The notes under the pieces were generated by a model that had not been told where the DNA came from, ran no database searches, and worked only from the letters and a program-made list of their open reading frames with translations. The position numbers and the translations under genes were made by a program. From Giardia intestinalis (Eukaryota): a stretch of 64,000 nt of DNA. This document shows positions 34,549-64,000 of the stretch, piece by piece; the first letter of the stretch is position 1, and every line of letters starts with the position of its first letter. The stretch is from NCBI GenBank assembly GCA_000002435.2, contig CM018793.1, one strand, 5' to 3'.

Positions 34549-34575
34549 CTGCCTGAAGCCTTTAAAAATTTTAGT
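34549..34575. promoter_or_regulatory. 27-bp AT-rich divergent promoter shared by alpha-SNAP (minus) and the alpha-giardin paralogue (plus).
   Basis: CTGAAGCCTTTAAAAATTTTAGT lies between the two start codons. Confidence 0.5.
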
Positions 34576-35547: not shown

Positions 35548-35574
35548 CCTGGCGATTGAATTTACATAGTACAA

Positions 35575-37215: not shown

Positions 37216-37285
37216 CGATTTTTATGTTTGGAAAATCATAAAATAATTTGATAATTTGACATTTATTTCCGTGGGCCTTTTACTC

Positions 37286-38998: not shown

Positions 38999-39066
38999 CT
39001 ACCCACAAAGACAAAGGGCGATCTAGATCCCAAGTAGTTTTTTGAAGGTGCAAAACGACTTCAGAT

Positions 39067-41001: not shown

Positions 41002-41811
41002 ATGGGCTCTGGGGCAATGACGGCGGAGACGCGCGCCTCCGTTCTGCTCGAGCTCGCGAAGCAGGTCGTCGCTGCCCGGCGGCTGGAGGAGACGGCCGAG
41101 AGCCTCGCGCGGCGGCCGCTGCTCCTCCACCGGCACGTGCTCCGGACGGCCATCGACTGGAAGAAGATCGCCCGCGCCCTGTCCGAGGACCGGAGCAGGA
41201 TCTACCACTGGTACCGCGAGACGCACTCGCGGAGCATCCTCAACGTGAAGATGACCGGCGAGGACCGCAGGGCCATCAAGGCGATGATCATCGCCGGGGT
41301 CAGGGACCGGAGCATCCTGGGCCCGGACTTCTACCGCAGGGTCCACGAGCGCTTCGGGGCGAAGTATCCGCGCCAGGAGCTGCGGATGACGTACAACAAC
41401 GCGCTCCGCACCCAGGACGTCCGCGCCGCCCTGGAGGAGCACGGGGTGGTGCTGCCGCGCCGCACATACGGCCCGAGGGCGGCCAAGCAGGAGGAGGAGG
41501 CATCTCCTGTGGCGGCCACTCCCCCGCCCCCCTGCGTTTTTGGTTGCGCCGCGCCTCCGCTGGTGCCGCCCGTCGGGGGGCCGGTCTTTGTGGCCCCGGG
41601 CGCGGTCTCTGCGCTTCTGCCCCCGCACGCGCCGGGATGCCTCGTCCTCGCCCTCCCACCCGGGGTCGTTTCTGGGCCCGGCGTCCTCCCGCTCCAGACG
41701 GGCCAGGGTCTCCTTGGGCCGCCCGTTGCATTCGCATGCGTGCCATGCTTCCCCCCTGCGGGCTACGGGGGCGTGCCTGGGTGCGCCGATACATACCCCA
41801 GCAAGGGCTGA
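41002..41811 (+). CDS. Extremely GC3-biased ORF. The N-terminal 160 aa are globular with a possible Myb/SANT-like helix-turn-helix (IDWKKIARALSEDRSRIYHWYRETH). The C-terminal tail is Pro/Gly/Val-rich and low-complexity.
   Basis: ATG start. GC3 is above 90% across the first 160 codons. The opposite-strand ORFs are Arg/Pro/Gly-rich, which is typical of antisense to GC-rich coding sequence. The C-terminal third may be non-coding read-through in GC-rich DNA. Confidence 0.35.
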   Translation: MGSGAMTAETRASVLLELAKQVVAARRLEETAESLARRPLLLHRHVLRTAIDWKKIARALSEDRSRIYHWYRETHSRSILNVKMTGEDRRAIKAMIIAGVRDRSILGPDFYRRVHERFGAKYPRQELRMTYNNALRTQDVRAALEEHGVVLPRRTYGPRAAKQEEEASPVAATPPPPCVFGCAAPPLVPPVGGPVFVAPGAVSALLPPHAPGCLVLALPPGVVSGPGVLPLQTGQGLLGPPVAFACVPCFPPAGYGGVPGCADTYPSKG

Positions 41812-45775: not shown

Positions 45776-46534
45776 CACGGGAGTGTCCTAGTTGAGTTGT
45801 AAGTTGATGTGATGGCTCGGTGATCCAGTTTGAGCGACTGTCTGCGAATAGTACAGCCAGAGTGAATCCCTTTGTCAGATAATATGGTATTTAGAATCGG
45901 TGGTGGCTCGATACGACCAGCTGTTCAGGTCTCCTCGTCAAGACAGGCGACCCCTGTACCATATGGATGTGTATGGAGGCAATGTAAGAAAGGCGGGACT
46001 CATACGTGTCTACATTGGAGAGCACAGTAATCACAAGGTGGCAAAGAGAGAGCGTGCAGTAGAAGACTCGTGCAAAGGTTGTGCTGCCCAGAGAATCGGG
46101 ATTTAATTATGCCGGCTCACAGACACAGCCGATCATCCCTTCGCACCAGTGCTGCAGCGGTCGCCTCTGCCACCCTCATCGTTATAGAGTTGCGCCGGCA
46201 ATACTTTGAACACTTTATGTCTGACCAGCTACTCCGCAGAGTGCTTCGTGGATGCCTGTTCTGGGCTACGAGAGTTACGTCGTATCGCCCTCTTGTGGAC
46301 CATGGCGCACCACCAGCAGTTGACGTGTGGTGTTCTCGACTCTGATCGCAGTGGGTAACAAGATAGGTACCGTCCGACGCCCCCTCAGGGCCACCGTCGA
46401 GCGATTACGCGTTCTCCGTCGAGTTCATTTTGCGAATTAAAATGCCCCGCCCCTCCCTCCCTCCTCGGTCTCCAGATCTGCCTGTGTGACACATCACCCG
46501 TCGAGCACCAGGATGGAGAGCAGGGGCGCGCTGA

Positions 46535-47006
46535 TCAGCACAGGTCCGTGACACAGGAGGCTTCCATGGAGTGGTTCCATTTACAAGCTGGGCCCAGTGC
46601 AATGAGCCGGATCAAGAGAAGGACAACGACAACAGGTATGTCTGCGTGAACGGCTGTGGATCAGACAGCACCGGGAAGTGCGTCCCCACGAGCAACTGTC
46701 CTTCCCAGAACACGGGCTGCTCGAGCTATGATGTAGACAGCGAGTGCCTCTCGTACTCGAATAGCGCCAACAGCGTTCAGCCAAATAAGTGGTCGTGCGT
46801 CCCAGGCTGCCGGACAGGTGGAGTCCTTTGCGCCTTTCTGCACGTGCATGCGAGGATACAGCCTCAAAAATGACGACTGCACCCCTCAGGCCAGGAAGGC
46901 CGGCTCCACGACGGCCATCGTCACCGTCCTCGCCCTGTGGTCCTTGCTCTTGTGTGCTGGTTTGTCCTGCGGCGACAGCAGGGATCGAAGGGGATCTCGA
47001 CAGTAG
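46535..47006 (+). pseudogene. Frameshifted fragment of a cysteine-rich EGF-like/VSP-like type-I surface protein.
   Basis: Frame 2 encodes NGCGSDSTGKCVPTSNCPSQNTGCSSYDVDSECL…SCVPGCRT. Around 46820 it shifts to frame 0, which encodes FCTCMRGYSLKNDDCTP (an EGF-like CxCxxGYxLxxDxC) followed by the hydrophobic stretch AIVTVLALWSLLLCAGLSC and a short basic tail. There is no ATG in the upstream frame. Confidence 0.35.
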
Positions 47007-47978
47007 AGACCAGGAGGCTCATGGCAATGATAGGTTTTGACTCTACAGCTGCGCGAACCAGTTTATAATGAGTGAATACTTAGGATCTGTTGAATCCGTA
47101 ACCCTCTCAGGCTGGTGCCTGGTTCCTGAATTACTAGCTCAGCAGACTCTGCTCAAGTGATAGTTCACCTTGCTTCGCTACGATGGGCGTGTCAGTTGCT
47201 ATCCAGGTAGGTCCTTCGAGACGAGCAACCACGTTAGACATCCCCATTCAGCTGACTCCAATGATTCAGATACTGCAGTTCTGGCAGAAGAGAAAGCGCG
47301 GCAGAGGAGCCAGCACCCAACCTCCTGCAGTTGCAGTAGGCAGGCTACACAAAATAATGCGTCCGTGATTGTACACTGGCTGCTGACCATCTGGCACCAC
47401 AGGTGCACTGCGGTCCATGAGCAGAATGGTAGGCCGGGCGTCTCCTCCGCGCCAACCAGGGATCGATGTGGGGGTCCATGGACACATGCTACAGTTCAGG
47501 AGGACGCATGGCGAGCGCACCCCGACAGCAGGACCGATGGTCCACTCCACGAGGAGGCGAGGAGGAATCCAAGTCGACACTCGAGGCTATGACACATACG
47601 ATCTTCATCATGGACACCAGCACCGAGCGACCCTGGACTGCACGGCCGGGAGAACTGCGTCCTCAAGGAGCCTGAGTGAAGAGATTGAAGGCCTAGACCG
47701 ATATCACGCCAGATTAAGCCGTAGTATTCAGAGCGAGAAGGCACGAGAATCTTCTTTTTCGCGGAACTACGGCGTCCAGATTCCGAAGTTTGGACTCTGG
47801 ATTCTGGACAGTGAAAAAGGATGCCATCTAGTGTTACAGTGATGGCTTGTTTAATTGACAACCTACTTGGACAGTAGCTGCCAAGCCTGCCGCATTAACT
47901 AGCTGCTACGTTTAGTTTTCTAGATTGGATTGTCAATCCAGTCTTCAAATAGTTTCAAAATCTGTTATTTCAAAAATA

Positions 47979-50900
47979 ATGTACCCAGTGCTCCGGCTGT
48001 ACCTCAAGACGGCCAGGGTCCATCTTTGTCTCTACATCTGCATGATTGTCATGCCGGTCGTTGTGATGGCCGCTGTCGCCCTCTTCTTCTCGTTCGAGGA
48101 TAGACTGCAAAGCCCTAGCAGCGGCCTAGGCGAAGGGACTCTCCCGCGCCTCCCGTTGTGCAGGGACCTGCCTGGTTGCACGAGCCAGACCGTGTACCTT
48201 GCATTCTCCCCCGACACGATCGAGGCACGCCGGGTCGTTGACAGACTCGTCCAACAGAACGGATTAGAGTCGGAGCGGATTGTTGCCGTAAGGGACCGCG
48301 CAACGATGCAGAGGCTTGTGGCCGGGAAGAATCTCGGCCCGAGCTTTGTCGATGACGTGATTGCGGCCAACCTGGGAGAGACGGTGCGGGGGCACCTCCT
48401 AGGCGCCGATGGCTCCCTTGCTTCGATCCTCACCCCGCGGAAGGTCCTTGCAGACAGGGATGTCGTTACAGAGATGCTCGACACAGCGTACGGGCTTGAT
48501 GACAGAACCCTGGATGCGTTCGATGACGAGTGGGCCGCGAGCATGGGACCGGCCGACAGCGTCTTCCTCGCGCTCGACCTAAACATCTCAAACCGGGAAG
48601 CGTCAGACATCCCGCAGGCCGTCCAGTACTCACTCTGGTACAGCCAGGAGATGATGGCCCGGTACGCTGTCAAACACCCTAGTCCACGGACAAGGTCCTC
48701 GGCGCCTAACTCACACGCCATGTCGTATGTGTGGAGCCCGGCGTCCTTCAGCATTTTCGAGGCGATTCACAACGCCCTGACGGAAACCTTTATCGACAAA
48801 ACCATTTCGTACAGCCTAGGAGAGTATCCGTCGCAAGGCTCGACCACCACCCTTGCCGGGATGCAGGCGTATATGATTCTCCAGCTTTCTATCTTCCTTG
48901 AGTGCATCCTGACCCTCATCTTCGCGGCGCACTTTCGCGGGCCCTTTCAGACCACGCTCCGCCGATTGGGTGTCTCGGAGTTCTGCATGTACGGGCTCAC
49001 GTTCGGCACACTTTTGATCGCCAACCTCTTGGCATACGGACTTCTCTTTGGTGCTGGCTCGCTCTTCAAGCTGTTCCCCTTCTCAAGCTACACTCCTTCT
49101 CTTAACGCCCTTGTCAGCATCACCTTCGCCCTCATCACCACCGCCTCCGTGCTGCTCCTGCACATGTTCTTCTACAACACGTCGGTGGCAATTGCCTTTG
49201 GGACGGTGGCCCTGATTCTGCTCGTGGCATTTCCCTTCTTGATCCTCCTCGAGGAGCCTAGCTTCCCTACAATTTGGACGCAGCTCGTCGTCCCAACCTG
49301 GCTAACAAAGGTCTTCTACGTCCTTTTTCCTCCCTTGGGGCTCGTTGCCATCTGCGACATGCTGGTCGCTTTAAGACCAGAACGTACCAGTGCTGAGCTT
49401 GTTGTACCGACCTACAGTCAATATGGGTTTGAGATTCTATTTAGTGATATTAACAATTACCATTCTAATCGATACGTATGTTCAGGAACTGTTAGTTTAG
49501 GCACAAGCGGATGTACCTTCCAACTTCCTTACCTTGGATCTCTTGTCGTCACGTCCCTGGTCCAGAGCATCCTAGCTCTTCCGCTATTAACTCTGGTTCT
49601 CCTATTCTGCAAACACGAGCCAGGCTCACAAGGGCTTCCCCTCGGCTTCCTTTGCAGCCGCAAGTTCTACCGTACAAGGCGCCCCAAGGACAACCCGGAG
49701 TTCCCCTTTCTGTTTGTCTCAGGGCTTCGGAAGACATACCGTAAGGCAAAGAGATGCACGGTCGTCAAGGAGGAGGCGCTGTGCGGGCTGGACTTGCACC
49801 TTAAGCAGGGAGAAGTCACGGGCCTCGTCGCGACAAGCGGCGGCGGAAAGTCCACAGCCCTGGGGATCATGGCTGGCGAGCTGGCGCCCTCTGGCGGGCA
49901 GTGCGCAGGGCTCGGACACGATCTCCTCTGCCCGTACACCGCACGGTCCCTGCGGGGGTTCATCTCGCTCTGTCCCCAGGAGTGGAACAACCTCTGGATC
50001 AACCTCACTGTCAGGGAGAACGTTCTTCTGTGCGCAGAGATCCGGGCCAGGGTCACGGGCCGCCTCGGCGAGCTCCAGCACAGAAACGGGTCTCTCGACG
50101 GATACGTCGACGAACTCCTGAAGCGCCTCGGGTTGCACGACCACGCGCACAAGCAGGCGTCTGCCCTGTCTGGGGGGATGCTTCGTCGCCTGGCCCTTGC
50201 AAACGCAACGGCGGGAGGTCCGCGGCTGATACTTCTCGACGAGATTACGGTGGGCGTGGACCCGATCCTGAAGCGCCAGATCTGGGCGTACGTTCGCGCA
50301 CTGGTCACAGAGGGCGCCGCAGCAGTCCTGTCCTCCCACGACGCCAACGAGATAGCAGAGCTAGCCACTCGCGTTGTCGTGCTCAAGGCCGGTCGGACGC
50401 AGGCCGATGCCCCTGTTGTGCAACTCCTTGAGGAGCATGGAGACTACGTGGTCTCAGTGACGTCAGAAAGCCGCGACGCCATTTCACGAGTAGCGCTGCT
50501 GCTCTCGACGGAGCTAGGGATTCTGCTCGGAGTTGGCGCTAAAGAGCTAGGTGTTACAATGGACCCACGGCGTGCCAGCATATCCATCCCTGCAGCACTA
50601 GTCCCAGATGCACATGCTCTGGCGGGTCTGGTGCAGCATTGCCGCGCCTTCGAGAAACGAGAGGGCGTCCAGGTTGCCGTCTCACGGGCCCGGCTGGAGG
50701 ATGTCTTCGAGCACCTGCTGGATGGCGAAGACGACGCGCAGCCGGAGCCTCTGCGCTCAGTAACTCTGGACGAGGACAGAAAGCCCTCCGTGACGCGCCA
50801 CCTGCTGCTTCTCTTCCTCTCCCTGGACCTTCAAGAGCACTGCAGAAGCTTTGCTTCCATACTTGCTGCGCTGACTGCCCTATTTGTGCTAATTTGGATG

Positions 50901-53450
50901 GGGGTCCGTTATACTCTTACTAGCGTCACAAATATCACTGAGTCAGTAGAGGCAGCGCAACTTACTGAGTGGTCTCTGTCATGCCTTGCTGACTGCATCA
51001 ACGCCAATCCCGGTGCAGACCCTTTGTTGATAGATGCCAATGTCACAATTGAAAACGTAAGCGAGTTTTTGAAAGCCAACCCAGGAGTCGATGCCCTTCA
51101 GGTCATGGAGCGCTGCCTGGTGAAGCGTCCTCGGCGACTCTTCGAGCCAATGCTTCAGTATCCAAATGGATTCCCCGTCTGTCTTAGCTACATGAATCAC
51201 TTGGGCCTCGACACATATCGCTACGATTACTTGACCGTTGGGGATCGTCAGACAGGATCCCTGGGAACCAACGAGACGCAATTCAGTTGGTACTACATTG
51301 GCGTAGTAGGTGACGCTTCGAAGGTCGAGACCTCAGACAGCATATCATTGAGCCTGTCTCTGGACGACCCTCTTATAGCAGGCTCTCCAACGGAAGGGCT
51401 TGACTATTATGTCGCAAACGAACCCCAGCAGATCTCTTTCTCTCCCCAGAACTTTGGGGATGTGTGGAGGAGGGGCGTGGAGGCAGGCCTCAGACACCCC
51501 TTGGACTCCGATGACCTGTTCTCGTTTGTGGCCCCCCGCATGACTGTACCTCAGCATTTTCGCAGTGACACATCTGTGCCTTTGACAGATGCAGAGGATT
51601 ATGCACTTCTGCTTGAGGAGACTATTCTTCGCCAACCCACGGCAAGTGACTTCTTTGAGGGGATTACGTCTACAATTGGCAGCACGTTTATTAAGCCAGA
51701 CTGCTTCGATTCACAGCCGGCTGTACAAGCACGTGTGGTTCGCAGGGTGTTCAGAAGCATCCCTGCGGTTATCTTTCAACCAGGCCAGCACGAGGCAGGC
51801 AGTGCATTGCTTCTCAAGATGTACACTATGCTTCCTCCTCTCGGGCCACAACGCAAGGCCTATCGTGATTGGGTCATTACCTTTACTCCATCAGCAGAGC
51901 GGGCCGATATGCTGGTATCTACCTCGAAATATTTAATCCCTACCTTATTTCAGTATATGAACGAATCTCTTAAGAATGCCGTTGATATTACAAAAGCAGA
52001 TCGTGTCAGATTCACATTCACGACGATTGGGGCGGATGCGATGGCCAAGATGACCGGCGCTCTCTTCCGTCAGCACCTCGTAGAGTCTCTTCGGGACACG
52101 CTTGGTGTAGAGGAGGCGTGGCGCCAAGGCACGGAGTTCACCTATGACGGGTCCGTGATGAGTATCCCTAGGCGGTATCTGAACAGAGATCTCATATTCG
52201 AAACTCCGGGGGCAGCCCTGCAATCGATGGAGATAATGAGTGACTACTACTTAGTGTTCCTCTTGTTGCTAGGAAGCGTCATTGTAGCTGGCCGCGCTGC
52301 CCGGGAGTTTCAGCAGCGCACTGTGACCCTCCTCCGCCTCCACGGAGCCTCTGAAATACGCGTTGTCATGGTTCTTATCCTGTACTTCAGCATCTGGACC
52401 ATCACCCCCACAATACTGATTGCAGCGGCCTTGACAGCACTCTTTAAGGACGCCTTCTTCATCCACGGTCCTGCAGTGGCCGCTGTCGCATATACCTGCC
52501 TGGGAATGATAGCTCTTTCCAGTGTGTTCAATGCAGTCCTAGTGGCCGTGCTCCTTCGTTCTCAGCAGAACGCCATGCTGACCGTGGTTCTCCAGATCCT
52601 CGTCGCTGTCTTTGTCTCCGGCTCTCTCAGGGCCGAGGGAGCAGTGGCCGCCGTCCTGGGCCTTCTGGCTCCTGGTGTGGGGTACATGCCCGTGCTGCGA
52701 AACGCCATAGGACTTAGCCGCATTAGCTGGGGGTCTCTTGCCCTCTCGTTTCTGATATCGCTGCTAGAGGTCTTTGCCTCGCTTGGCGTGCTGCTGCTCA
52801 GGAAGATTCGGGTCCGCCAGAGGATCAAAGACAGGACCCCTGACGGATCAGATTCAGAGGAGTCTGGACTGCTGAGTGGGCTATCAGAAACAACCTCCAT
52901 GACCAGCCTCAACTTAGAAAAGAAGGATGCGCCCCCTGGGCACCCTGACAACCACCTCAGCGTGCAGGGGATCTCGCACAGCTATCGCAAGGGCGCCCAC
53001 GCGCTCGACAACGCCTCGTTTTCGGTGCCGGCGGGGAGCATCTTCGCCCTGCTCGGCGCCAACGGGGCCGGGAAGTCCACGATGATGCACGCCTTGACAG
53101 GAGTCCTGAGGCCGACTGCTGGAAGCGCTCTCTGCGTGCGTAACGAGGCCGACAGCAGACGGGTTGACCTCTTCCGGCGGGTCCACCACAGCCGGTACAT
53201 CACAGTTGTTCCCCAGCACGACCTTTACTGGCCGCAGCTCACGGTCCGCTACCACGTGAAAATCATCCGAGGGCTCACGCCCAGGGCACTTCGGCCAAAC
53301 ATCAAGTCGACGGACCACGTGCTCCGCCTGGTGGGGCTGGCCGAGCACGCCGACAAGAGGGCCGGTGCGCTCTCGGGCGGGATGCGGCGGCGCCTCACGC
53401 TCGCGATGGTCCTAGTCTCGTCTCCCTCGCTCATCTGCCTCGACGAGTAG
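47979..53450 (+). CDS. ABCA-subfamily ABC transporter (TMD-NBD-TMD-NBD), 3'-truncated inside NBD2.
   Basis: The first ATG is at 47979 (the track ORF began at a TTG at 47925). TM1 is followed by a large extracellular domain and a TM bundle. NBD1 has GGGKST, LSGGMLRRLALA and ILLDE. TMD2 follows. NBD2 has LLGANGAGKST, LSGGMRRRLTLA and the Walker B LICLDE, and then stops at 53450 with no D-loop or H-loop. Confidence 0.8.
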   Translation: MYPVLRLYLKTARVHLCLYICMIVMPVVVMAAVALFFSFEDRLQSPSSGLGEGTLPRLPLCRDLPGCTSQTVYLAFSPDTIEARRVVDRLVQQNGLESERIVAVRDRATMQRLVAGKNLGPSFVDDVIAANLGETVRGHLLGADGSLASILTPRKVLADRDVVTEMLDTAYGLDDRTLDAFDDEWAASMGPADSVFLALDLNISNREASDIPQAVQYSLWYSQEMMARYAVKHPSPRTRSSAPNSHAMSYVWSPASFSIFEAIHNALTETFIDKTISYSLGEYPSQGSTTTLAGMQAYMILQLSIFLECILTLIFAAHFRGPFQTTLRRLGVSEFCMYGLTFGTLLIANLLAYGLLFGAGSLFKLFPFSSYTPSLNALVSITFALITTASVLLLHMFFYNTSVAIAFGTVALILLVAFPFLILLEEPSFPTIWTQLVVPTWLTKVFYVLFPPLGLVAICDMLVALRPERTSAELVVPTYSQYGFEILFSDINNYHSNRYVCSGTVSLGTSGCTFQLPYLGSLVVTSLVQSILALPLLTLVLLFCKHEPGSQGLPLGFLCSRKFYRTRRPKDNPEFPFLFVSGLRKTYRKAKRCTVVKEEALCGLDLHLKQGEVTGLVATSGGGKSTALGIMAGELAPSGGQCAGLGHDLLCPYTARSLRGFISLCPQEWNNLWINLTVRENVLLCAEIRARVTGRLGELQHRNGSLDGYVDELLKRLGLHDHAHKQASALSGGMLRRLALANATAGGPRLILLDEITVGVDPILKRQIWAYVRALVTEGAAAVLSSHDANEIAELATRVVVLKAGRTQADAPVVQLLEEHGDYVVSVTSESRDAISRVALLLSTELGILLGVGAKELGVTMDPRRASISIPAALVPDAHALAGLVQHCRAFEKREGVQVAVSRARLEDVFEHLLDGEDDAQPEPLRSVTLDEDRKPSVTRHLLLLFLSLDLQEHCRSFASILAALTALFVLIWMGVRYTLTSVTNITESVEAAQLTEWSLSCLADCINANPGADPLLIDANVTIENVSEFLKANPGVDALQVMERCLVKRPRRLFEPMLQYPNGFPVCLSYMNHLGLDTYRYDYLTVGDRQTGSLGTNETQFSWYYIGVVGDASKVETSDSISLSLSLDDPLIAGSPTEGLDYYVANEPQQISFSPQNFGDVWRRGVEAGLRHPLDSDDLFSFVAPRMTVPQHFRSDTSVPLTDAEDYALLLEETILRQPTASDFFEGITSTIGSTFIKPDCFDSQPAVQARVVRRVFRSIPAVIFQPGQHEAGSALLLKMYTMLPPLGPQRKAYRDWVITFTPSAERADMLVSTSKYLIPTLFQYMNESLKNAVDITKADRVRFTFTTIGADAMAKMTGALFRQHLVESLRDTLGVEEAWRQGTEFTYDGSVMSIPRRYLNRDLIFETPGAALQSMEIMSDYYLVFLLLLGSVIVAGRAAREFQQRTVTLLRLHGASEIRVVMVLILYFSIWTITPTILIAAALTALFKDAFFIHGPAVAAVAYTCLGMIALSSVFNAVLVAVLLRSQQNAMLTVVLQILVAVFVSGSLRAEGAVAAVLGLLAPGVGYMPVLRNAIGLSRISWGSLALSFLISLLEVFASLGVLLLRKIRVRQRIKDRTPDGSDSEESGLLSGLSETTSMTSLNLEKKDAPPGHPDNHLSVQGISHSYRKGAHALDNASFSVPAGSIFALLGANGAGKSTMMHALTGVLRPTAGSALCVRNEADSRRVDLFRRVHHSRYITVVPQHDLYWPQLTVRYHVKIIRGLTPRALRPNIKSTDHVLRLVGLAEHADKRAGALSGGMRRRLTLAMVLVSSPSLICLDE

Positions 53451-55585
53451 GGTAGACAGAGGCGGTTTACTACGTAATATGCGCGCAAGGCGGTAAGGAC
53501 ATTGGAGGGGAGGCAGCCTCACGACGGAGGGGAAGGGCCCGCCCGGGGCGCCCAGCCCCCGTGCCCGCGTGGTCTCGCGGCGGGGGCGCGGCCAGGGGGG
53601 CCTTCTCCCCAGCTCCAGGGGTATGCTCCTGTGCGCGGGGGCGCGCGGGTCACGGCCAGGGGGGCCAGGCGCTGCAGGCTGTGTGTTAGTGGATCCGCGG
53701 AGAGGGCGGCCTGCGGTGTTAGGGCATAGCGGCATGCAGACATACAGGCCCGAGGGAGGCGTGCCATGTGAGGGGGAGTGGTAGGGGGGCATCCTGGAGG
53801 ATCGATGGCGAAGGTGCCGATCCTCCTCCGTGGCGGCGCAGGAGTCCTGGATGAGACGTGATGGCGTGGGTGCTTGGCCTTTGCTCGAGCGCATGGTGTG
53901 GGTGGACCGATTCCCCGCATCCTCCAGGCCCTGCGGGGGCGGTCTTCAGGCCCAAATTCTGGATTTTGGAAAAAATAAAATCCACCATGAGCGTCGCCCC
54001 GGCGCAACCAGCAGGCCCTGGGCCGCGGAAACAAAGAGACAAATAGCCCGTGGACCAAGAAGAGTGCAGGCCTGTTTGGGGGGTAGAAGACGACGCGTCG
54101 GGCCAGAAACCCAGGGATCCAGGATTCCAGTCAAAGGCAGGCCTACAGACCGGCCCACTGCACCGCGCACATACGCGAGGCACCATAATGCTGTTGCACT
54201 AAAAAGGGAAGCGCGAGCCCAGAGAACCGGCGAGGAAACAGCTTGGGGGTGGAGGGGTTTGGGGAGCCCAAATTCTGGCCCATCGACACACGGGGTGAGC
54301 TGTGGCCGGCCCAAGGGGACAGCGTGGACAGGTGTGTGCAGTGCCCCATATAAGGATGCACGATGGGGATCGGCCGGGGCCACCGATTCGGGGGACAAGG
54401 GAGACGCGTCCGGACTGTCCCCGGGAGTCCGTGAGAAGGGAGGGTGCGGACCGTGCACCATAGCTAGCCCATCCACACGTGTCGTGCTATTCCAGAATGG
54501 TGGCTCACCGGAGGCGTCTGGCCAAGATGGCGGGGGCAGCGGGGCGGTGGTCCCATACGGCCCAGGAGGCCGACAGAAGGTCACGCCTGAGAGAGCAGAC
54601 TGACGGCTTAGGAGGTGGTGTGGGGAGGCACGGGTGATGGAGGAGGCCCCCTAAGGGCGGGTCCAGGCTGATGACGCCAGCTCAGGACAGACCGGCAGAG
54701 CGCCGTGGAGCCATATTCTTCTGTGCGTGCCAGTCCCATCTGTGACAAGCAACCCATGTGGTGCCAGCGCTGGTGGGAGGCATGTGGCCCAGGTATGGAG
54801 CGAAACCTGGGGGCCCGGCCGGGACTGTCAACAGCCGTCACCGCGACTCAGCGGAGACCGAGCAGGAGAGGTAGAGAGGAGCAGGGGAGAATGGGCCAGG
54901 CAAACACAGGCGCATGAGGGATGGCCCATTGGAGGGCAAGCACCTGGAGGCCAGGGCCAGAGTGACCAGGTTCCCTGTACCGGGGCGCCCAGAGTGGGTA
55001 CATGAGGGGGGGCAGTGGGGAAGCGATGCACCCGAGGGCTCAGTAGCACATAGCACCCGGCCATCCTCTCCAGGGGGCACCGGGGCGCTGCAGCAGAGGA
55101 TGGCCCGAGCCAGGGCTGTGCCGCCCCGGACCGGAGGCGGCCACTGGCGGGCAGTTCCATGGGGGGATCAGCACGGCGCGGTGCGATGGTACGAATGACA
55201 CACGGGGCTAGCCTCTTCCCCCAGCACCAGCTCGCCAGACTCAGCACCCAAGGACCGCCGCTGCCCGGGAGGACAGACAGACGAACACCGGGCTGCGGCG
55301 TGGGCAGATGACGAGTCCCATCGAGGAAGTGCCCAAACGTAGGCAGGGCGGGTGTCTGGCCATCCAGGGGGGCGTCCGGCCTGGCCCGGCCTGGTCGAGT
55401 GTGTATGGCATCGCGGCTAGGCATCTATCGCACCGTGTCTGGACGTGATGCACACCCGAATGATAGGGGCAAGAGGCCTCGGGTGCGAGCGAGGAGTACC
55501 AGGGGAGACAGCTCGGCACGCAGGCCCAGGGGTCCGTTCGCGCTGTGGGGCAGCCGACAGCGGGCAGGGTGCCCAAGCATGACCA

Positions 55586-58500
55586 CTAGCGCCCCGTGTC
55601 GATGCGTTTGAAGGGGTAGAAGCCATCAGGGGCATGCGGCTTGGGAGGACCGACGCGCTTGAAGAAGGACGGCAGGGCCTTGTGCACCGGCTCGGGTGCT
55701 CCTGCATCGTCGGGGCTGTCGTCATCCAGTGGAGGCGGGGAGGGGGCCCTTGAGCACATGAAGGGGTCTGGGCGTTCGTTTGCATCCGGCTGTGCGGGGT
55801 GATCGGTGCCCCAGGTGATCGAGGAGGAGACCTCAGCAGGACCCCAGGGAGGAGGGACTGCCGCATCAGGATGCTGGCTGAGATCGGCCATGATCTCTAC
55901 GGAGGGCGACGTGCCAGGGCTCCACATGGCAGGGGTGAGGGGAGTAGGAGGAGTAGCCCGAGCCTCGTTGGGAGCCGGTTCCGGCAGGGATACTGCAGGG
56001 GCGGGGCGGTGCACCGGCCTCTCCACTCGCAGCCCAGCGTACAGGAGGGCCGACAGCCTGTAGTGCCAGAGGATGACCTGCGCCGCCTCCTGCATGAAGC
56101 GCGCAAGGTCCACGCCGGCGAACGCGAGTCCGGCCGCAGACAGGTGGTGCAGGACGCCGTCAGCACCGACCACGACGGGGAGGATGTGGGCCGCCCGCCC
56201 CTGGAGCACGAGGGGGCGATACTTGGCGGCCTTCAGGGCATAGGACCGCTCCAGCCTCCACGGGACAGTGACCACCAAGTCCCCGAAGCCCCCACCGATG
56301 ACAAGGTCAGGCTGGAGGTGATCCACTGGGATCGTGGGATTGCGCACAACAGACCCAGCGCGACCGCGGGAGCACGCGAGCAGGGCGTCCAGAATCTTGT
56401 CGTGCCGCGCCACGTGAATCCCGTTAATGGCCTTGCACACCAGATGGTGCCTGGGAAGGAAGGGCTGCTTGCAGTGGCAGCACGTGCCCATCGGCCGGCC
56501 CCGCTGGTACCTCCCCGCCAAGCAGTCCCCTATGAACAGGACCTGCGTGTTGTCCAGGGGTGCGCAGCCCAGCAATGCGAGCGGCAGGAAGGATCGGAGC
56601 GCGGCCGTGTCCTGCAGGCGCTTCTTCCTCAGCTCGCGGAAGACGCCCGCCTTCATGTCCTGGCGCTGCCTGTGCATCTCGTCGTAGTAGTGATGGGGCA
56701 GCACCAGTCCGAGGCCGTACTTCGCGCGGGGCGTCAGAGCAAGGGTCTTCGCAAGGGGTTCGGGGATCTCCAGAAGGGTCGCGACCTCCTCCACTATCTG
56801 CGCATCGACGTCGGCATAGGGGGACGGGCCCGGGTAGTCGTCAACAAGGGGTCCATAGTTAACTGCAGGGACGACGCAGGCAGACAGGAGCCTGAGGCGG
56901 TCGTGGAGTGAGAGACCCGAAGCACGGAGGACGGCGAGATGCTCGTGGAGCCGGCGGGCCGATGTCTGCGCGAGGTTGAAGGAGGAGTGCTTGAGCACGC
57001 GGGTGCCCATGAAGGAGATCGCCCCGGCCTGGGTCGAGGAGCACTTCGAGAGCTCGACCGTGAGCCCTATGCGGGAGAGGGCAGACTGCGCGTCACTCTT
57101 CACGGTATCTATGGGAATCGCCTCCTCTGACGCAATGACGAGGTCGTCGGCGTATGCAACGACCTTGTACTGGCCGAGGTACGTCTCCACCGGCCAGACA
57201 AGGCTCTGGCAGAACATCGCCATGGACAGCGGGTCCCCCTGTGGCACGCCCGCTGGGACCGCGGGGAGGTCCGAGGAGTGCCGAGCCGCGAGGAACGACT
57301 CAATGTACGCGACGGTCGGCTGGACCACCCCTGCCCGGCGGAGCGCAAAGAGGATGACGGAATGCGGGACGCTGTTGAAGGCATTCCGCACATCCACCGT
57401 GAGCAGGTGGTGTGTCCTCTTCAGCTCCTCGGCCGCGCGGATCGCCTTCATCTGGGCGAGGTGCTCAAAGGCCAGCTGCCACGCCGGGAGCTTGCGGAGC
57501 GCGGGAGTCCGACGCAGGAGCAAGCGGTGGAAGGCGACCAGAAGCGTCTCCTGCACTGCGATAGGGCGCCATCGGCCGCCAGACTTGGGCAGAAGCTTCA
57601 GCCTGAACTCGCACAGGGGCTGGAGCTGGGCCCAGTTCCTGCTGGAGAAGAGGGTCGTCAGGACAGAGGTGAAGAGCTCCGCAGCCCCGGCGGCCCCACA
57701 AAGGTGCAGGAGGTGAGGCTTCCCCAGCCCAGAGGGTCCGGCCGCGACAGGCCTCATCGCCTGCAGCTCCTTCAGCAGCGCCTTGGCCGTTATCTTGGGC
57801 GACGGGCCGAGCACGTGATGGACGGGGGGCAGAGAGACAGGCATGGGGCGCGGGTGGAGCTCATGGACAATCGCTTCCCGCTCCTTGCCCTGGGGCTCGG
57901 GGACCCTGGCGGCAGAGGACGTCTCGCTCAACAGCGCCTGCCATGCCCGGCCGAGCAGCCCCTTCCGGAGAAGCGACTGCGCCGGGGGGAGCCGTCCAGA
58001 GCCCTCCATGCGGCGGCACGTCGAGAGGAAGCGCGCTAGGGCCTCTACAGGAGGAAGGCGCCCCGCCATCTCTGTGAATACGTCAGTGAGGAGGCGAAGC
58101 AGCTCAGGGGACGGGCTGCCACTAGGCACCCCGATGCGCTCGGGGACTGTGGCGTCGAGCGGGAGGTAGTGGCCGAGCCTGGCGATATGGGCCTTCAGCC
58201 CCCTCTCCGTTTTGTATCGGGCCCGGCACATGCTGCATGCATACGGGAACACAGGGTCCGGCGTTGGCGAGGGAGAGGGCTCGGCGGCTGCAGGTGGAGG
58301 GGCAGACCCCGACAGCGGAGAAGGGCTGCGCGACGGAGAAGGTGAACCGGGAGGCGGATGGTGCATCCCGATGTGGACATCGATCGCCGCAGAGTCAGGC
58401 AGCACCTCTCCGCAGCGCTCGCAGACAGTCGTACGGCCCCCAGGAGCAGGCAGGTCTGCGCCCCGGGCCTCCTGCTCGTCCGTGATGGACGGGGAGTTGT

Positions 58501-58915
58501 CGTGGCCCAGGTCGTATGGGAGGCCGTCGTCGGGAATCGGGAGGGGCTCCTGGCCACAGGGCAGAAGGTCGTTCGACAGGCAGGGAGGAGAGGCGTCCCG
58601 GGCCACCGAGGCCCCGGAGCCCTGTAAGCCATGGACAGGAGAAGACTCATTGGGAGAGTTGTCCGTGGCGGAACGGCTGTTGCCAGGCCCAGGCTGGGGG
58701 GATGGGGGCCCGTGGGAGCCGCAGAGGGGCTCGCAAGAGGAAGGCCGGGCCATGGCGGTCGTCGAGGCATCGTTGCCGTCACCCAGCGTCATAGGATCGG
58801 GAGTGCCCCTAGGTAGGGGCCTGTGGGAGTCGGTTGGAGCGTGGTTGGGAGGCTCTGGGCCTGAGGAAGCCCCGATCTCCGTGGTTCCCGAAGGCGCGGA
58901 AAGGGCGGAACGCAT
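55586..58915 (-). CDS. Retrotransposon ORF: N-terminal C2H2 zinc fingers, reverse transcriptase, CCHC knuckle and REL-endonuclease-like domain.
   Basis: C2H2 fingers: CERCGEVLPDSAAIDVHIGMHH and CSMCRARYKTERGLKAHIARLGH. RT blocks: WRPIAVQETLL, LTVDVRNAFNSVPH, GVPQGDPLSMAMF and VAYADDLVIAS (YxDD). CHCKQPF…H zinc knuckle. RHDKILD…PDLVI is REL-endo (PD-(D/E)xK-like). Confidence 0.85.
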   Translation of the reverse strand: MRSALSAPSGTTEIGASSGPEPPNHAPTDSHRPLPRGTPDPMTLGDGNDASTTAMARPSSCEPLCGSHGPPSPQPGPGNSRSATDNSPNESSPVHGLQGSGASVARDASPPCLSNDLLPCGQEPLPIPDDGLPYDLGHDNSPSITDEQEARGADLPAPGGRTTVCERCGEVLPDSAAIDVHIGMHHPPPGSPSPSRSPSPLSGSAPPPAAAEPSPSPTPDPVFPYACSMCRARYKTERGLKAHIARLGHYLPLDATVPERIGVPSGSPSPELLRLLTDVFTEMAGRLPPVEALARFLSTCRRMEGSGRLPPAQSLLRKGLLGRAWQALLSETSSAARVPEPQGKEREAIVHELHPRPMPVSLPPVHHVLGPSPKITAKALLKELQAMRPVAAGPSGLGKPHLLHLCGAAGAAELFTSVLTTLFSSRNWAQLQPLCEFRLKLLPKSGGRWRPIAVQETLLVAFHRLLLRRTPALRKLPAWQLAFEHLAQMKAIRAAEELKRTHHLLTVDVRNAFNSVPHSVILFALRRAGVVQPTVAYIESFLAARHSSDLPAVPAGVPQGDPLSMAMFCQSLVWPVETYLGQYKVVAYADDLVIASEEAIPIDTVKSDAQSALSRIGLTVELSKCSSTQAGAISFMGTRVLKHSSFNLAQTSARRLHEHLAVLRASGLSLHDRLRLLSACVVPAVNYGPLVDDYPGPSPYADVDAQIVEEVATLLEIPEPLAKTLALTPRAKYGLGLVLPHHYYDEMHRQRQDMKAGVFRELRKKRLQDTAALRSFLPLALLGCAPLDNTQVLFIGDCLAGRYQRGRPMGTCCHCKQPFLPRHHLVCKAINGIHVARHDKILDALLACSRGRAGSVVRNPTIPVDHLQPDLVIGGGFGDLVVTVPWRLERSYALKAAKYRPLVLQGRAAHILPVVVGADGVLHHLSAAGLAFAGVDLARFMQEAAQVILWHYRLSALLYAGLRVERPVHRPAPAVSLPEPAPNEARATPPTPLTPAMWSPGTSPSVEIMADLSQHPDAAVPPPWGPAEVSSSITWGTDHPAQPDANERPDPFMCSRAPSPPPLDDDSPDDAGAPEPVHKALPSFFKRVGPPKPHAPDGFYPFKRIDTGR

Positions 58916-58917
58916 GG

Positions 58918-58933
58918 TTTTTTTTTTTTTTTT
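58918..58933 (-). repeat. Poly(A) tail (A16) of copy B at the inter-element junction.
   Basis: T16 on the plus strand lies immediately distal to the copy A ATG (…AAAAAAAAAAAAAAAACCATG… on the minus strand). Confidence 0.85.
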
Positions 58934-61900
58934 AGGGGCGGTTTACTACGTAATATGCGCGCAAGGCGGTAAGGACATTGGAGGGGAGGCAGCCTCACGA
59001 CGGAGGGGAAGGGCCCGCCCGGGGCGCCCAGCCCCCGTGCCCGCGTGGTCTCGCGGCGGGGGCGCGGCCAGGGGGGCCTTCTCCCCAGCTCCAGGGGTAT
59101 GCTCCTGTGCGCGGGGGCGCGCGGGTCACGGCCAGGGGGGCCAGGCGCTGCAGGCTGTGTGTTAGTGGATCCGCGGAGAGGGCGGCCTGCGGTGTTAGGG
59201 CATAGCGGCATGCAGACATACAGGCCCGAGGGAGGCGTGCCATGTGAGGGGGAGTGGTAGGGGGGCATCCTGGAGGATCGATGGCGAAGGTGCCGATCCT
59301 CCTCCGTGGCGGCGCAGGAGTCCTGGATGAGACGTGATGGCGTGGGTGCTTGGCCTTTGCTCGAGCGCATGGTGTGGGTGGACCGATTCCCCGCATCCTC
59401 CAGGCCCTGCGGGGGCGGTCTTCAGGCCCAAATTCTGGATTTTGGAAAAAATAAAATCCACCATGAGCGTCGCCCCGGCGCAACCAGCAGGCCCTGGGCC
59501 GCGGAAACAAAGAGACAAATAGCCCGTGGACCAAGAAGAGTGCAGGCCTGTTTGGGGGGTAGAAGACGACGCGTCGGGCCAGAAACCCAGGGATCCAGGA
59601 TTCCAGTCAAAGGCAGGCCTACAGACCGGCCCACTGCACCGCGCACATACGCGAGGCACCATAATGCTGTTGCACTAAAAAGGGAAGCGCGAGCCCAGAG
59701 AACCGGCGAGGAAACAGCTTGGGGGTGGAGGGGTTTGGGGAGCCCAAATTCTGGCCCATCGACACACGGGGTGAGCTGTGGCCGGCCCAAGGGGACAGCG
59801 TGGACAGGTGTGTGCAGTGCCCCATATAAGGATGCACGATGGGGATCGGCCGGGGCCACCGATTCGGGGGACAAGGGAGACGCGTCCGGACTGTCCCCGG
59901 GAGTCCGTGAGAAGGGAGGGTGCGGACCGTGCGCCATAGCTAGCCCATCCACACGTGTCGTGCTATTCCAGAATGGTGGCTCACCGGAGGCGTCTGGCCA
60001 AGATGGCGGGGGCAGCGGGGCGGTGGTCCCATACGGCCCAGGAGGCCGACAGAAGGTCACGCCTGAGAGAGCAGACTGACGGCTTAGGAGGTGGTGTGGG
60101 GAGGCACGGGTGATGGAGGAGGCCCCCTAAGGGCGGGTCCAGGCTGATGACGCCAGCTCAGGACAGACCGGCAGAGCGCCGTGGAGCCATATTCTTCTGT
60201 GCGTGCCAGTCCCATCTGTGACAAGCAACCCATGTGGTGCCAGCGCTGGTGGGAGGCATGTGGCCCAGGTATGGAGCGAAACCTGGGGGCCCGGCCGGGA
60301 CTGTCAACAGCCGTCACCGCGACTCAGCGGAGACCGAGCAGGAGAGGTAGAGAGGAGCAGGGGAGAATGGGCCAGGCAAACACAGGCGCATGAGGGATGG
60401 CCCATTGGAGGGCAAGCACCTGGAGGCCAGGGCCAGAGTGACCAGGTTCCCTGTACCGGGGCGCCCAGAGTGGGTACATGAGGGGGGGCAGTGGGGAAGC
60501 GATGCACCCGAGGGCTCAGTAGCACATAGCACCCGGCCATCCTCTCCAGGGGGCACCGGGGCGCTGCAGCAGAGGATGGCCCGAGCCAGGGCTGTGCCGC
60601 CCCGGACCGGAGGCGGCCACTGGCGGGCAGTTCCATGGGGGGATCAGCACGGCGCGGTGCGATGGTACGAATGACACACGGGGCTAGCCTCTTCCCCCAG
60701 CACCAGCTCGCCAGACTCAGCACCCAAGGACCGCCGCTGCCCGGGAGGACAGACAGACGAACACCGGGCTGCGGCGTGGGCAGATGACGAGTCCCATCGA
60801 GGAAGTGCCCAAACGTAGGCAGGGCGGGTGTCTGGCCATCCAGGGGGGCGTCCGGCCTGGCCCGGCCTGGTCGAGTGTGTATGGCATCGCGGCTAGGCAT
60901 CTATCGCACCGTGTCTGGACGTGATGCACACCCGAATGATAGGGGCAAGAGGCCTCGGGTGCGAGCGAGGAGTACCAGGGGAGACAGCTCGGCACGCAGG
61001 CCCAGGGGTCCGTTCGCGCTGTGGGGCAGCCGACAGCGGGCAGGGTGCCCAAGCATGACCACTAGCGCCCCGTGTCGATGCGTTTGAAGGGGTAGAAGCC
61101 ATCAGGGGCATGCGGCTTGGGAGGACCGACGCGCTTGAAGAAGGACGGCAGGGCCTTGTGCACCGGCTCGGGTGCTCCTGCATCGTCGGGGCTGTCGTCA
61201 TCCAGTGGAGGCGGGGAGGGGGCCCTTGAGCACATGAAGGGGTCTGGGCGTTCGTTTGCATCCGGCTGTGCGGGGTGATCGGTGCCCCAGGTGATCGAGG
61301 AGGAGACCTCAGCAGGACCCCAGGGAGGAGGGACTGCCGCATCAGGATGCTGGCTGAGATCGGCCATGATCTCTACGGAGGGCGACGTGCCAGGGCTCCA
61401 CATGGCAGGGGTGAGGGGAGTAGGAGGAGTAGCCCGAGCCTCGTTGGGAGCCGGTTCCGGCAGGGATACTGCAGGGGCGGGGCGGTGCACCGGCCTCTCC
61501 ACTCGCAGCCCAGCGTACAGGAGGGCCGACAGCCTGTAGTGCCAGAGGATGACCTGCGCCGCCTCCTGCATGAAGCGCGCAAGGTCCACGCCGGCGAACG
61601 CGAGTCCGGCCGCAGACAGGTGGTGCAGGACGCCGTCAGCACCGACCACGACGGGGAGGATGTGGGCCGCCCGCCCCTGGAGCACGAGGGGGCGATACTT
61701 GGCGGCCTTCAGGGCATAGGACCGCTCCAGCCTCCACGGGACAGTGACCACCAAGTCCCCGAAGCCCCCACCGATGACAAGGTCAGGCTGGAGGTGATCC
61801 ACTGGGATCGTGGGATTGCGCACAACAGACCCAGCGCGACCGCGGGAGCACGCGAGCAGGGCGTCCAGAATCTTGTCGTGCCGCGCCACGTGAATCCCGT

Positions 61901-64000
61901 TAATGGCCTTGCACACCAGATGGTGCCTGGGAAGGAAGGGCTGCTTGCAGTGGCAGCACGTGCCCATCGGCCGGCCCCGCTGGTACCTCCCCGCCAAGCA
62001 GTCCCCTATGAACAGGACCTGCGTGTTGTCCAGGGGTGCGCAGCCCAGCAATGCGAGCGGCAGGAAGGATCGGAGCGCGGCCGTGTCCTGCAGGCGCTTC
62101 TTCCTCAGCTCGCGGAAGACGCCCGCCTTCATGTCCTGGCGCTGCCTGTGCATCTCGTCGTAGTAGTGATGGGGCAGCACCAGTCCGAGGCCGTACTTCG
62201 CGCGGGGCGTCAGAGCAAGGGTCTTCGCAAGGGGTTCGGGGATCTCCAGAAGGGTCGCGACCTCCTCCACTATCTGCGCATCGACGTCGGCATAGGGGGA
62301 CGGGCCCGGGTAGTCGTCAACAAGGGGTCCATAGTTAACTGCAGGGACGACGCAGGCAGACAGGAGCCTGAGGCGGTCGTGGAGTGAGAGACCCGAAGCA
62401 CGGAGGACGGCGAGATGCTCGTGGAGCCGGCGGGCCGATGTCTGCGCGAGGTTGAAGGAGGAGTGCTTGAGCACGCGGGTGCCCATGAAGGAGATCGCCC
62501 CGGCCTGGGTCGAGGAGCACTTCGAGAGCTCGACCGTGAGCCCTATGCGGGAGAGGGCAGACTGCGCGTCACTCTTCACGGTATCTATGGGAATCGCCTC
62601 CTCTGACGCAATGACGAGGTCGTCGGCGTATGCAACGACCTTGTACTGGCCGAGGTACGTCTCCACCGGCCAGACAAGGCTCTGGCAGAACATCGCCATG
62701 GACAGCGGGTCCCCCTGTGGCACGCCCGCTGGGACCGCGGGGAGGTCCGAGGAGTGCCGAGCCGCGAGGAACGACTCAATGTACGCGACGGTCGGCTGGA
62801 CCACCCCTGCCCGGCGGAGCGCAAAGAGGATGACGGAATGCGGGACGCTGTTGAAGGCATTCCGCACATCCACGTGAGCAGGTGGTGTGTCCTCTTCAGC
62901 TCCTCGGCCGCGCGGATCGCCTTCATCTGGGCGAGGTGCTCAAGGCCAGCTGCCACGCCGGGAGCTTGCGGAGCGCGGGAGTCCGACGCAGGAGCAAGCG
63001 GTGGAAGGCGACCAGAAGCGTCTCCTGCACTGCGATAGGGCGCCATCGGCCGCCAGACTTGGGCAGAAGCTTCAGCCTGAACTCGCACAGGGGCTGGAGC
63101 TGGGCCCAGTTCCTGCTGGAGAAGAGGGTCGTCAGGACAGAGGTGAAGAGCTCCGCAGCCCCGGCGGCCCCACAAGGTGCAGGAGGTGAGGCTTCCCCAG
63201 CCCAGAGGGTCCGGCCGCGACAGGCCTCATCGCCTGCAGCTCCTTCAGCAGCGCCTTGGCCGTTATCTTGGGCGACGGGCCGAGCACGTGATGGACGGGG
63301 GGCAGAGAGACAGGCATGGGGCGCGGGTGGAGCTCATGGACAATCGCTTCCCGCTCCTTGCCTGGGCTCGGGGACCCTGGCGGCAGAGGACGTCTCGCTC
63401 AACAGCGCCTGCCATGCCCGGCCGAGCAGCCCCTTCCGGAGAAGCGACTGCGCCGGGGGAGCCGTCCAGAGCCTCCATGCGGCGGCACGTCGAGAGGAAG
63501 CGCGCTAGGGCCTCTACAGGAGGAAGGCGCCCCGCCATCTCTGTGAATACGTCAGTGAGGAGGCGAAGCAGCTCAGGGGACGGGCTGCCACTAGGCACCC
63601 CGATGCGCTCGGGGACTGTGGCGTCGAGCGGGAGGTAGTGGCCGAGCCTGGCGATATGGGCCTTCAGCCCCTCTCCGTTTTGTATCGGGCCCGGCACATG
63701 CTGCATGCATACGGGAACACAGGGGCCGGCGTTGCGAGGGAGAGGGCTCGGCGGCTGCAGGTGGAGGGGCAGACCCCGACAGCGGAGAAGGGCTGCGCGA
63801 CGGAGAAGGTGAACCGGGAGGCGGATGGTGCATCCCGATGTGGACATCGATCGCCGCAGAGTCAGGCAGCACCTCTCCGCAGCGCTCGCAGACACCGACG
63901 ACGGCCCATACGACCTGGGCCACGACAACTCACCCGTCCATCACCGGACGACAGGAGGCCCGGGCGGAAGACCTGCTGCTGCCCTGGGGCGGCCGTACGA
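58934..64000 (-). mobile_element. Second tandem copy (copy B) of the same retrotransposon. Its 5' end runs off the window. The 3' half is above 99% identical to copy A; the 5' half carries indels.
   Basis: ORF-track entries 58978-62873 duplicate those at 53502-57400 with a 5,476-bp offset. The copy ends in a poly(A) (T16 on the plus strand, 58918-58933) that directly abuts copy A. Confidence 0.8.
61062..63928 (-). pseudogene. RT/REL-endo ORF of copy B, interrupted by several single-base deletions.
   Basis: The 603-aa C-terminal part is identical to copy A. Upstream of 62873 the frame is broken at least four times, each a 1-nt loss in a homopolymer run (ccaccgtg to ccacgtg, caaaggc to caaggc, acaaagg to acaagg, gccctgggg to gcctggg). 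Confidence 0.6.

Follow-up and report, generated by a model that had tools for sequence, protein, structure and literature searches.

A Giardia intestinalis ABC transporter gene truncated at a telomere-like junction with a GilM retrotransposon array

Introduction

Why would a transporter gene stop in the middle of its second nucleotide-binding domain (NBD2), at exactly the base where a retrotransposon array starts? We asked this of a 64,000-nt stretch of Giardia intestinalis DNA (assembly GCA_000002435.2, contig CM018793.1; hereafter the window), in which the open reading frame (ORF) of an ABCA.1-type ABC transporter, at 47979..53447 on the + strand, runs into the 3' end of a GilM retrotransposon. 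An earlier reading of the letters alone (the original prediction) had proposed that a chromosome break was healed by telomerase and later extended by retrotransposon addition, and that this terminal deletion destroyed a gene. The history that we regard as probable keeps much of this outline: a subtelomeric ABCA.1 paralogue was broken, gained a telomere seed, and was then extended by GilM units. The window takes in the inward boundary of a subtelomeric array of GilM, which belongs to the 4.02-Mb chromosome of isolate WB.

According to reviews, unidirectional arrays of GilM and GilT, with units arranged head to tail, separate subtelomeric DNA from the telomere repeats (PMC10999387; PMC5537684). 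In the WB assembly about four GilM copies of 5,474 bp each were assembled at one end of chromosome 5, and the telomere consists of (TAGGG)n (Xu et al. 2020, PMC7000408), so the original prediction was right to call TAGGG the Giardia telomere unit.

Results

The truncated ORF comprises 1,823 codons from the ATG at 47979 to the GAG at 53445-53447, and is free of internal stops and frameshifts. The stop codon, TAG at 53448-53450 (+ strand), is made of the first three bases of the junction segment described below. This end point and stop are those originally proposed, although the length given there was 1,824 aa; in a program-made ORF list the frame starts at TTG 47925 rather than at the ATG used here. 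At the break the + strand of the window reads ...CTC GAC GAG | TAG GGT AGA CAG AGG CGG TTT ACT ACG..., that is, CTC GAC GAG TAG and then GGTAGACAGAGGCGGTTTACTACG by direct reading. NBD1 is complete (Walker A at 49830-49856, signature, LILLDE, and SSHD). Motif reading of NBD2 on the + strand gave Walker A GANGAGKST at 53055..53081, the ABC signature LSGGMRRRL at 53370..53396, and Walker B LICLDE at 53430..53447. The Walker B codons are the last with homology to full-length relatives, and 53447 is the breakpoint.

The original prediction would have failed if full-length orthologues naturally ended here. None does: the six complete relatives that we found in the 90% cluster and a neighbouring P15 cluster (two each from WB, DH, and P15) are all 1,979 aa long, and the lone exception among seven relatives, the third P15 copy P0046, is frameshifted further downstream. 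All six match residues 1-1823 gap-free, the P15 ABCA.1 protein with 86% identity over these 1,823 aa, and then continue for 156 more residues beginning ATTGFSGRLRKRVWDAILASKGANKTLIVTSHDMAEVEAL. After Walker B they read LICLDE-ATTGFSGRLRKRVWDAILASKGANKTLIVTSHDM..., or ATTGFS…TSHD in shorthand, and an alignment to NBD2 of human ABCA1, which has a solved structure (...LDEPTTGMDPKARR...VLTSHSMEE...), places the missing stretch from the D-loop through the H-loop onward. The D-loop and H-loop are thus absent as predicted, but the loss is not on the scale of some 50 aa: the truncated copy lacks 156 residues, encoded by a 468-nt 3' fragment of the gene, including both loops and the C-terminal domain. 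These loops are needed for ATP hydrolysis across ABC transporters. The truncated NBD2 therefore lacks elements needed for hydrolysis, the gene falls short of the two complete NBDs of a full ABCA transporter, and its product is probably non-functional. The same end point is seen in DNA: homology stops at 53447 against all three loci compared, P15 L001 (83%), DH L002 (97.1%), and DH L003 (94.7%). Past this base P15 reads GCGACAACGG and the window reads TAGGGTAGAC, which places the break at the retroelement junction, as had been claimed.

What follows the last gene base is telomere-like. The 10 nt TAGGG TAGAC (53448..53457, + strand) lie between this base and the first base in common with the canonical GilM 3' end. 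Together with the last G of the gene they contain an in-phase telomeric G-strand run of 9 nt (53447-53455) that points away from the gene. Its 8 nt at 53448-53455, TAGGGTAG, occur only once in the window when both strands are searched, and in-phase telomeric runs of at least 8 nt number three on both strands of the whole window, the junction included. With five phases and 4^-8 for each start position, such a run in the right orientation would fall within a junction of 10-13 nt with a probability of roughly 3e-4 to 5e-4, and would start at the break itself with one of ~1e-4 to 5e-4; because telomere-phase runs are so rare in the window, a coincidence at this point is improbable. The outward G-strand repeats start exactly where homology is lost (53447|53448), as they do in de novo telomere addition. 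The TAG of the telomere unit also serves as the stop of the gene, so that annotation shows a seemingly normal 1,823-aa "ABC transporter".

The sequence beyond the stub is the 3' end of the telomeric retrotransposon GilM, oriented for addition to a chromosome end, in agreement with the original prediction. Tandem Repeats Finder did not see the unit, since its period exceeds the 500-nt limit, and we used general repeat finding within the window instead. A period of 5,476 nt repeats from 53458 (= 58934), with one mismatch at 53460. The proximal copy, copy 1, spans 53458..58917 on the - strand, with a 3' UTR at 53458-55585, an intact 1,109-aa ORF at 55586-58915, and a poly(A) signal AGTAAA at 53466-53471 (- strand); its 3' end has no poly(A). 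Copy 2 (58934..64000, - strand) is cut by the end of the window, and its A16 tail (58918..58933, - strand) abuts copy 1, whose 5' end (CCATGCG...) is intact. The 3' end of GilM thus faces the ABC gene, and the units run head to tail in the orientation reported for Gil arrays (PMC10999387, PMC5537684); such an orientation is expected if units were added outward.

The 1,109-aa ORF contains a reverse transcriptase domain (RVT_1, E = 3.8e-21, residues 443-639). By motif reading only, it also has a CCHC motif at 812-838 and a QPD at 868-870 followed by GDLVV...KAAKY, a PD..D..K restriction-like endonuclease motif. Two C2H2 fingers, at 165-186 and 227-249, were read from the translation, where zf-C2H2_4 falls below the Pfam cut-off. 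At 90% the protein clusters with AAL47180.1 and with WB proteins annotated "reverse transcriptase/endonuclease". The unit measures 5,476 nt versus the reported 5,474 bp, and the name GilM rests on this length and the chromosome location rather than on a reference nucleotide sequence.

The two ends of copy 1 are attached in different ways. Canonical Gil 3' ends in WB, P15, and GS read CCCT-A(n), CCCCTA-A(n), and the like, which amounts to one telomere C-strand unit before the tail. In the sense of the element, the junction between the WB copies reads ...AGTAAACCGCCCCT-A16-CCATGCG..., and the junction at the gene reads ...AGTAAACCGCCTCT-GTCTA-CCCTA-CTCGTCGAG, without poly(A). We found no A or T run at 53448-53460 of the kind left when oligo(A) is joined to a broken end in Drosophila, and no telomere repeat at the junction of copies 1 and 2 (A16-CCATGCG), where elements of the SART, TRAS, and MoTeR type have repeats on both sides. 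Within the window, neither a target-site duplication nor a 3' remnant of the gene follows the junction.

Before reading history into such a junction, we asked whether it might be a chimera, in which assembly had fused a collapsed ABC paralogue with a contig of repeats. Several features of the locus invite the suspicion. The three WB paralogues are more than 93% identical, the DH assembly breaks inside the ABC gene, and Xu et al. call this chromosome end incompletely assembled (PMC7000408). Copy 2 differs from copy 1 (58934-64000 vs 53458-58533) by four substitutions and nine 1-nt deletions, the latter typical of long-read error. Because of these deletions its ORF is broken into pieces of 603, 196, and 221 aa. 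Collapse of the repeat together with long-read indel errors might account for them, or copy 2 may be decaying. We also note that 63895-64000 of copy 2 has no match in the corresponding part of copy 1. Against a chimera, the truncated product is 100% identical to the G. intestinalis WB C6 "ABC transporter" that appears both as XP_001708435.1 in the older RefSeq annotation and as KAE8306162.1 in the long-read reannotation (4,018,654-bp chromosome record), and its stop codon lies inside the junction. An identical product in two generations of annotation makes a chimera unlikely. The gene is moreover ~6% diverged from the WB paralogues, and hence a distinct locus, and the specific structure of the junction has parallels in other isolates. 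We therefore give an assembly artefact almost no weight.

A parallel junction is present in isolate DH (contig AHGT01000152.1, locus L033, 5480-5540). Here a GilM copy 95% identical to that in the window, again with a 3' end lacking poly(A), is followed by CCTA(CCCTA)3 and then by a 5'-truncated element, all in one orientation. The junction reads ...AGTAAATTCCCCTACCCTACCCTACCCTA-CTCTGCCTTCT-GAGCCC..., with about four CCCTA units; the 11-nt segment CTCTGCCTTCT follows these units. The second element starts ~590 nt inside its full sequence and is 92% identical to the family found at P15 locus L005. On the G strand the order is an eroded element end, telomere repeats, and GilM. This arrangement records erosion, telomere capping, and renewed retrotransposition, and shows that GilM attaches to short telomere tracts by a telomere-like terminus without poly(A). 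It is our strongest argument that the stub in the window is telomeric rather than a product of chance.

The DH locus also bears on whether GilM instead entered an intact internal gene with the help of its endonuclease, the 3' part of the gene and the distal DNA being lost or moved later, and TAGGGTAG being a chance, untemplated, or transduced sequence. GilM does carry a restriction-like endonuclease motif; the window has two other telomere-phase runs of 9-10 nt that arose by chance; and the hexamer GACAGA, which overlaps the end of the stub, recurs at another junction (see below), so it would not be telomerase-made. Yet a telomere-phase run at the break would be expected by chance only at the frequency given above, the DH parallel has four full repeats, and the intact gene at the break (GAG|GCGACAACGG) does not resemble the targets at other junctions. 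The proximal copy also lacks poly(A), unlike internal copies, and the window shows no duplicated target or gene remnant. Internal insertion is thus improbable. The over-representation of one 10-mer could also be cited in its favor: the window contains three occurrences of CTCTGTCTAC, one of them across the junction, where 0.13 are expected, and none of 100 shuffles reached three. Its sites are 8031-8040 (-), 45382-45391 (+), and 53452-53461 (-), with further ones at L001 21601 and L005 11790. The other two window sites are away from Gil elements, that at 8031-8040 is outside the listed long ORFs, and the reading frames differ between window 45382 and L001 21601, the sites with an assignable frame.

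A second parallel comes from P15, where locus L005 (contig ACVC01000013.1) holds a three-unit array of a different Gil family whose ORF is ~67% identical to that of GilM. Its innermost unit ends ...AGTAAATTCCCCTC-TGTCTA-CTCTGCCCCC... without poly(A), and its internal junctions carry A9 and A15. At 11780-11837 the poly(A)-less end TCTGTCTACTCTGCC is followed by G+C-rich sequence up to the end of the contig. This end has TCTGTC in common with the WB junction and TACTCTGCC in common with the DH junction. As a separate observation, in the other P15 Gil family (L006) the 8 nt that immediately precede the poly(A) are also TACTCTGC. The last 150-200 nt are 80-86% identical between Gil families (window 53458-53660 vs the L005 and L006 3' ends), which suggests that the conserved 3' end is a recognition region for the reverse transcriptase or a hotspot for recombination.

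The original prediction placed ACAGA between the stub and the 3'-UTR sequence of the element. GACAGA (53455..53460, + strand; TCTGTC in the sense of the element) recurs at the poly(A)-less proximal junction of the different family at P15 L005. The hexamer is therefore not random filler: it occupies the same position in two isolates (WB and P15) and two Gil families. A second segment, CTCTGCC, follows telomere-phase bases in both DH and P15. We considered GACAGA and the P15 tail beyond the junction as sequence from inside Gil elements and rejected this, as neither had an internal match in a Gil element. These short recurring segments could be variant repeats, sequence copied from a special transcript tail, or relics of older junctions spread by recombination.

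Of the Gil 3' ends in the GS locus L004, the third was not located. At this locus, AGTAAA followed by TCCTTTACTCAA lies just inside the retroelement cluster (13188-13215; GS contig AHHH01000009.1), and we take the latter motif to resemble the 3'-end processing motif of Giardia non-coding RNAs. We also scanned metagenomes once for CCCCTCCGTCGNGAGGCTG, the conserved Gil 3' motif. None of the 25 loci obtained continues into a Gil 3' end, and we took them as chance matches.

The recurrence of GACAGA gives substance to one serious rival of our reading, namely that the broken ABC end captured an existing (TAGGG)n-TAGAC-GilM boundary on another chromosome end and copied the array there, either through end-joining or through break-induced replication at a microhomology of 1-2 nt. 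In this case TAGGGTAG would be telomeric but older than the break. That GACAGA at the end of the element is common to the P15 junction suggests an older, reused type of junction, and GGCAGAG-TA is likewise common to the DH and P15 junctions. Conservation of Gil 3' termini across families favors recombination at that place, and duplications make up 6.9% of the WB genome (PMC7000408). At the join, however, the microhomology is a single G, and the DH junction shows that an eroded, freshly capped end can carry GilM. Capture predicts a donor ...TAGGG(n)TAGACAGAGGCGG... on another assemblage A chromosome end, and a boundary ...(TAGGG)nTAGACAGAGGCGG... found elsewhere in WB would favor it. We rate this explanation as less likely than a seed made at the break itself, with chance and artefact as minor alternatives.

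The common motifs also allow a bolder idea. Poly(A)-less junctions across three isolates and two families have TCTGTC between the element end and TACCC-phase repeats (WB and P15) or CTCTGCC after the repeats (DH and P15). Gil elements might then make special transcripts with telomere-complementary 3' tails (...CUCUGUC(UACCC)n) that anneal to G-overhangs or new breaks. GilM would then prime in a defined register and stand in for telomerase as a specialised healer of breaks, instead of residing passively at telomeres. We consider this a doubtful proposition. If GilM RNAs end ...CCUCUGUCUACCCUA, the motif is carried by the element; if instead TAGGGTAGACAGA, or a longer version of it, is a fixed flank of the GilM master copy, the stub is a 3' transduction and not telomeric.

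The gene belongs by sequence identity to the Giardia ABCA.1 paralogue group, and its other members put the word "destroyed" in perspective. WB keeps two intact paralogues of 1,979 aa on other chromosomes, 93.5-93.9% identical to the truncated copy: P0042 adjoins IFT140 on the 2.76-Mb chromosome, and P0045, annotated "ABCA.1", adjoins TyrRS on the 1.54-Mb chromosome. The claim that a gene was destroyed is therefore an overstatement. Two other isolates, DH and P15, also have full-length relatives. DH L002 (97.1%) was considered as the orthologue of the window gene and rejected, as its flanking TyrRS and acyl-CoA ligase genes map to the WB 1.54-Mb chromosome beside P0045.

Synteny suggests a different counterpart. 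The DinF, MFS, and ABC genes of the window are KAE8306158, KAE8306161, and KAE8306162. DH contig L032 matches window 33827-48545 collinearly at 97.4% and breaks off after the first 567 nt of the ABC gene, so the third ABCA.1 copy at this locus predates the split of WB (assemblage A1) and DH (A2). Immediately upstream of the gene, 46366..47978 (+ strand) is 74-83% similar to the flank of the intact P15 copy P0002 and contains a 3' remnant of a high cysteine membrane protein gene; the DH copy at the IFT140 locus does not have this common flank. Because these 1.6 kb match the P0002 flank, P0002 is suggested as the positional counterpart of the truncated gene. In P15 the intact ABCA.1 copy is followed by a VSP gene and a 2,071-aa ABC gene, P0168 (L001 20569-25940, 4.6 kb downstream). 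The WB orthologue of P0168, KAE8304990 (91% identical), is on the same chromosome as the window, ~1,170 accession numbers away, and the truncated gene thus marks a synteny break between assemblages A and E.

Truncation has left little trace in the rest of the ORF. We tested for relaxed selection and counted 56 synonymous and 20 non-synonymous lineage-specific codon changes in the truncated copy versus 68 and 38 in an intact DH copy. The ratio is no more relaxed than in that copy and gives no sign of long pseudogene decay; either the truncation is recent, or conversion from intact copies keeps the ORF clean, or the product is still constrained.

A few observations concern neighboring or related sequences. 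Among the ABCA.1 paralogues (P0001, P0042, P0045, P0040, P0043, P0002, P0046, and P0048), identity within an isolate (WB 97.9%, DH 97.3%, P15 98-99%) is above that between isolates at the same locus. Since paralogues group by isolate, this pattern indicates concerted evolution, or gene conversion, among ABCA.1 copies on different chromosomes. Window 45776-47978 has no long ORF but shows 74-83% similarity to a P15 gene annotated "High cysteine membrane protein Group 1", both to its 3' end and to its flank; the bulk of that gene is absent. The sulfatase gene at window 858-3887 is a further duplicate between chromosomes: WB carries another copy, with at least 90% identity, on the 1.97-Mb chromosome record (KAE8303140).

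Discussion

Taken together, these results point to a probable order of events. A third, subtelomeric copy of ABCA.1 would have been broken or eroded until it ended with codon 1823. Its free 3' end ...GACGAG would then have gained telomeric G-strand sequence, of which TAGGG TAG was left, and GilM RNA would have been reverse-transcribed onto this very short telomeric seed. The first GilM cDNA presumably started at the telomere-like terminus of the element (canonically ...CCCCT/A) and not in a poly(A) tail, and later units with poly(A) tails would have been added distally, head to tail. We infer that telomerase made the stub at this locus, that its overhang primed reverse transcription, and that the steps came in this order.

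Several findings weigh against this history. Several perfect repeats would be expected of a healed telomere, and only 8-9 in-phase nt are present, the second unit being TAGAC. The occurrence of GACAGA at a P15 junction of another Gil family means that some of the stub region may have come from the element as template, or from an earlier junction, and not from telomerase. With an endonuclease-like domain in GilM, priming on a free end is not required. The distant position of KAE8304990 makes a rearrangement other than a simple terminal deletion possible. Finally, the window stops inside copy 2, so that the distal end of the array lies beyond it, and the array may not be terminal. Of the proposal that telomerase healing preceded retrotransposon addition, the stub, the orientation of the element, and the DH parallel stand, and the healing step is inseparable here from capture of an existing boundary.

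What the junction offers is a record, at base resolution, of how a chromosome end may have been rebuilt, from gene break to telomere seed to retrotransposon array. The first element of the array is attached differently from later ones, by a telomere-like terminus without poly(A), which bears on whether GilM and GilT cooperate with telomerase in end maintenance. There is a practical consequence as well: because the Pfam ABC_tran model stops near Walker B, a domain scan flags nothing abnormal in the truncated ORF (ABC_tran matches the 1,823-aa product twice, the second match reaching profile position 134/137 at the final residue), and XP_001708435.1/KAE8306162.1, although truncated and probably non-functional, is accepted by domain-based annotation as an ordinary ABC transporter.

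The locus combines traits of several known systems. In Drosophila, terminal deficiencies are healed by HeT-A and TART (Biessmann et al. 1990, as cited in PMC1635262 and PMC5537684). There, as in the window, a break in a gene is capped by a non-LTR element through its 3' end, and further units are added head to tail; in Drosophila, however, oligo(A) sits directly on the broken end and no telomerase repeats are present, whereas the window has a telomerase-type stub and no poly(A). Giardia, for its part, has telomerase. The MoTeR elements of Magnaporthe and SART/TRAS are non-LTR elements in telomere repeats that have a restriction-like endonuclease or are otherwise site-specific, and they resemble the window in their short interstitial telomere tracts, truncated subterminal genes, and rearrangements (PMC7367193, PMC10088271). 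Their copies are separated by telomere repeats, in contrast to the internal GilM junctions of WB, where A16 is joined to the next 5' end.

A functional healed telomere carries hundreds of bases. In this respect the window differs from de novo telomere addition by telomerase (Melek & Shippen 1996, as cited in PMC7367193), for it keeps only 1.6-2 units, and these are interstitial; the abrupt loss of homology, the outward G-strand repeats at the break, and the terminal G common to gene and repeat are as in that process.

The nearest system is that of the Giardia GilM/GilT arrays themselves. The inner boundary described here (the protein-coding gene that ends at codon 1823, the stub of two telomere units, and the first copy without poly(A)) is not described in PMC10999387, PMC5537684, or PMC7000408; it may already be in Prabhu et al. 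2007 or in Arkhipova & Morrison 2001, whose account of Gil subtelomeric arrays we cite as summarised in those three papers. The window has the same element, in head-to-tail units with 3' ends inward, presumably between unique DNA and the chromosome end, and 5'-eroded copies capped by telomere repeats, also known from these arrays, are seen at DH L033. The locus therefore exemplifies what is already known, that Gil elements are associated with chromosome ends, and is not a new system; the recurrence of GACAGA and CTCTGCC at poly(A)-less junctions is its one unexplained feature worth following.

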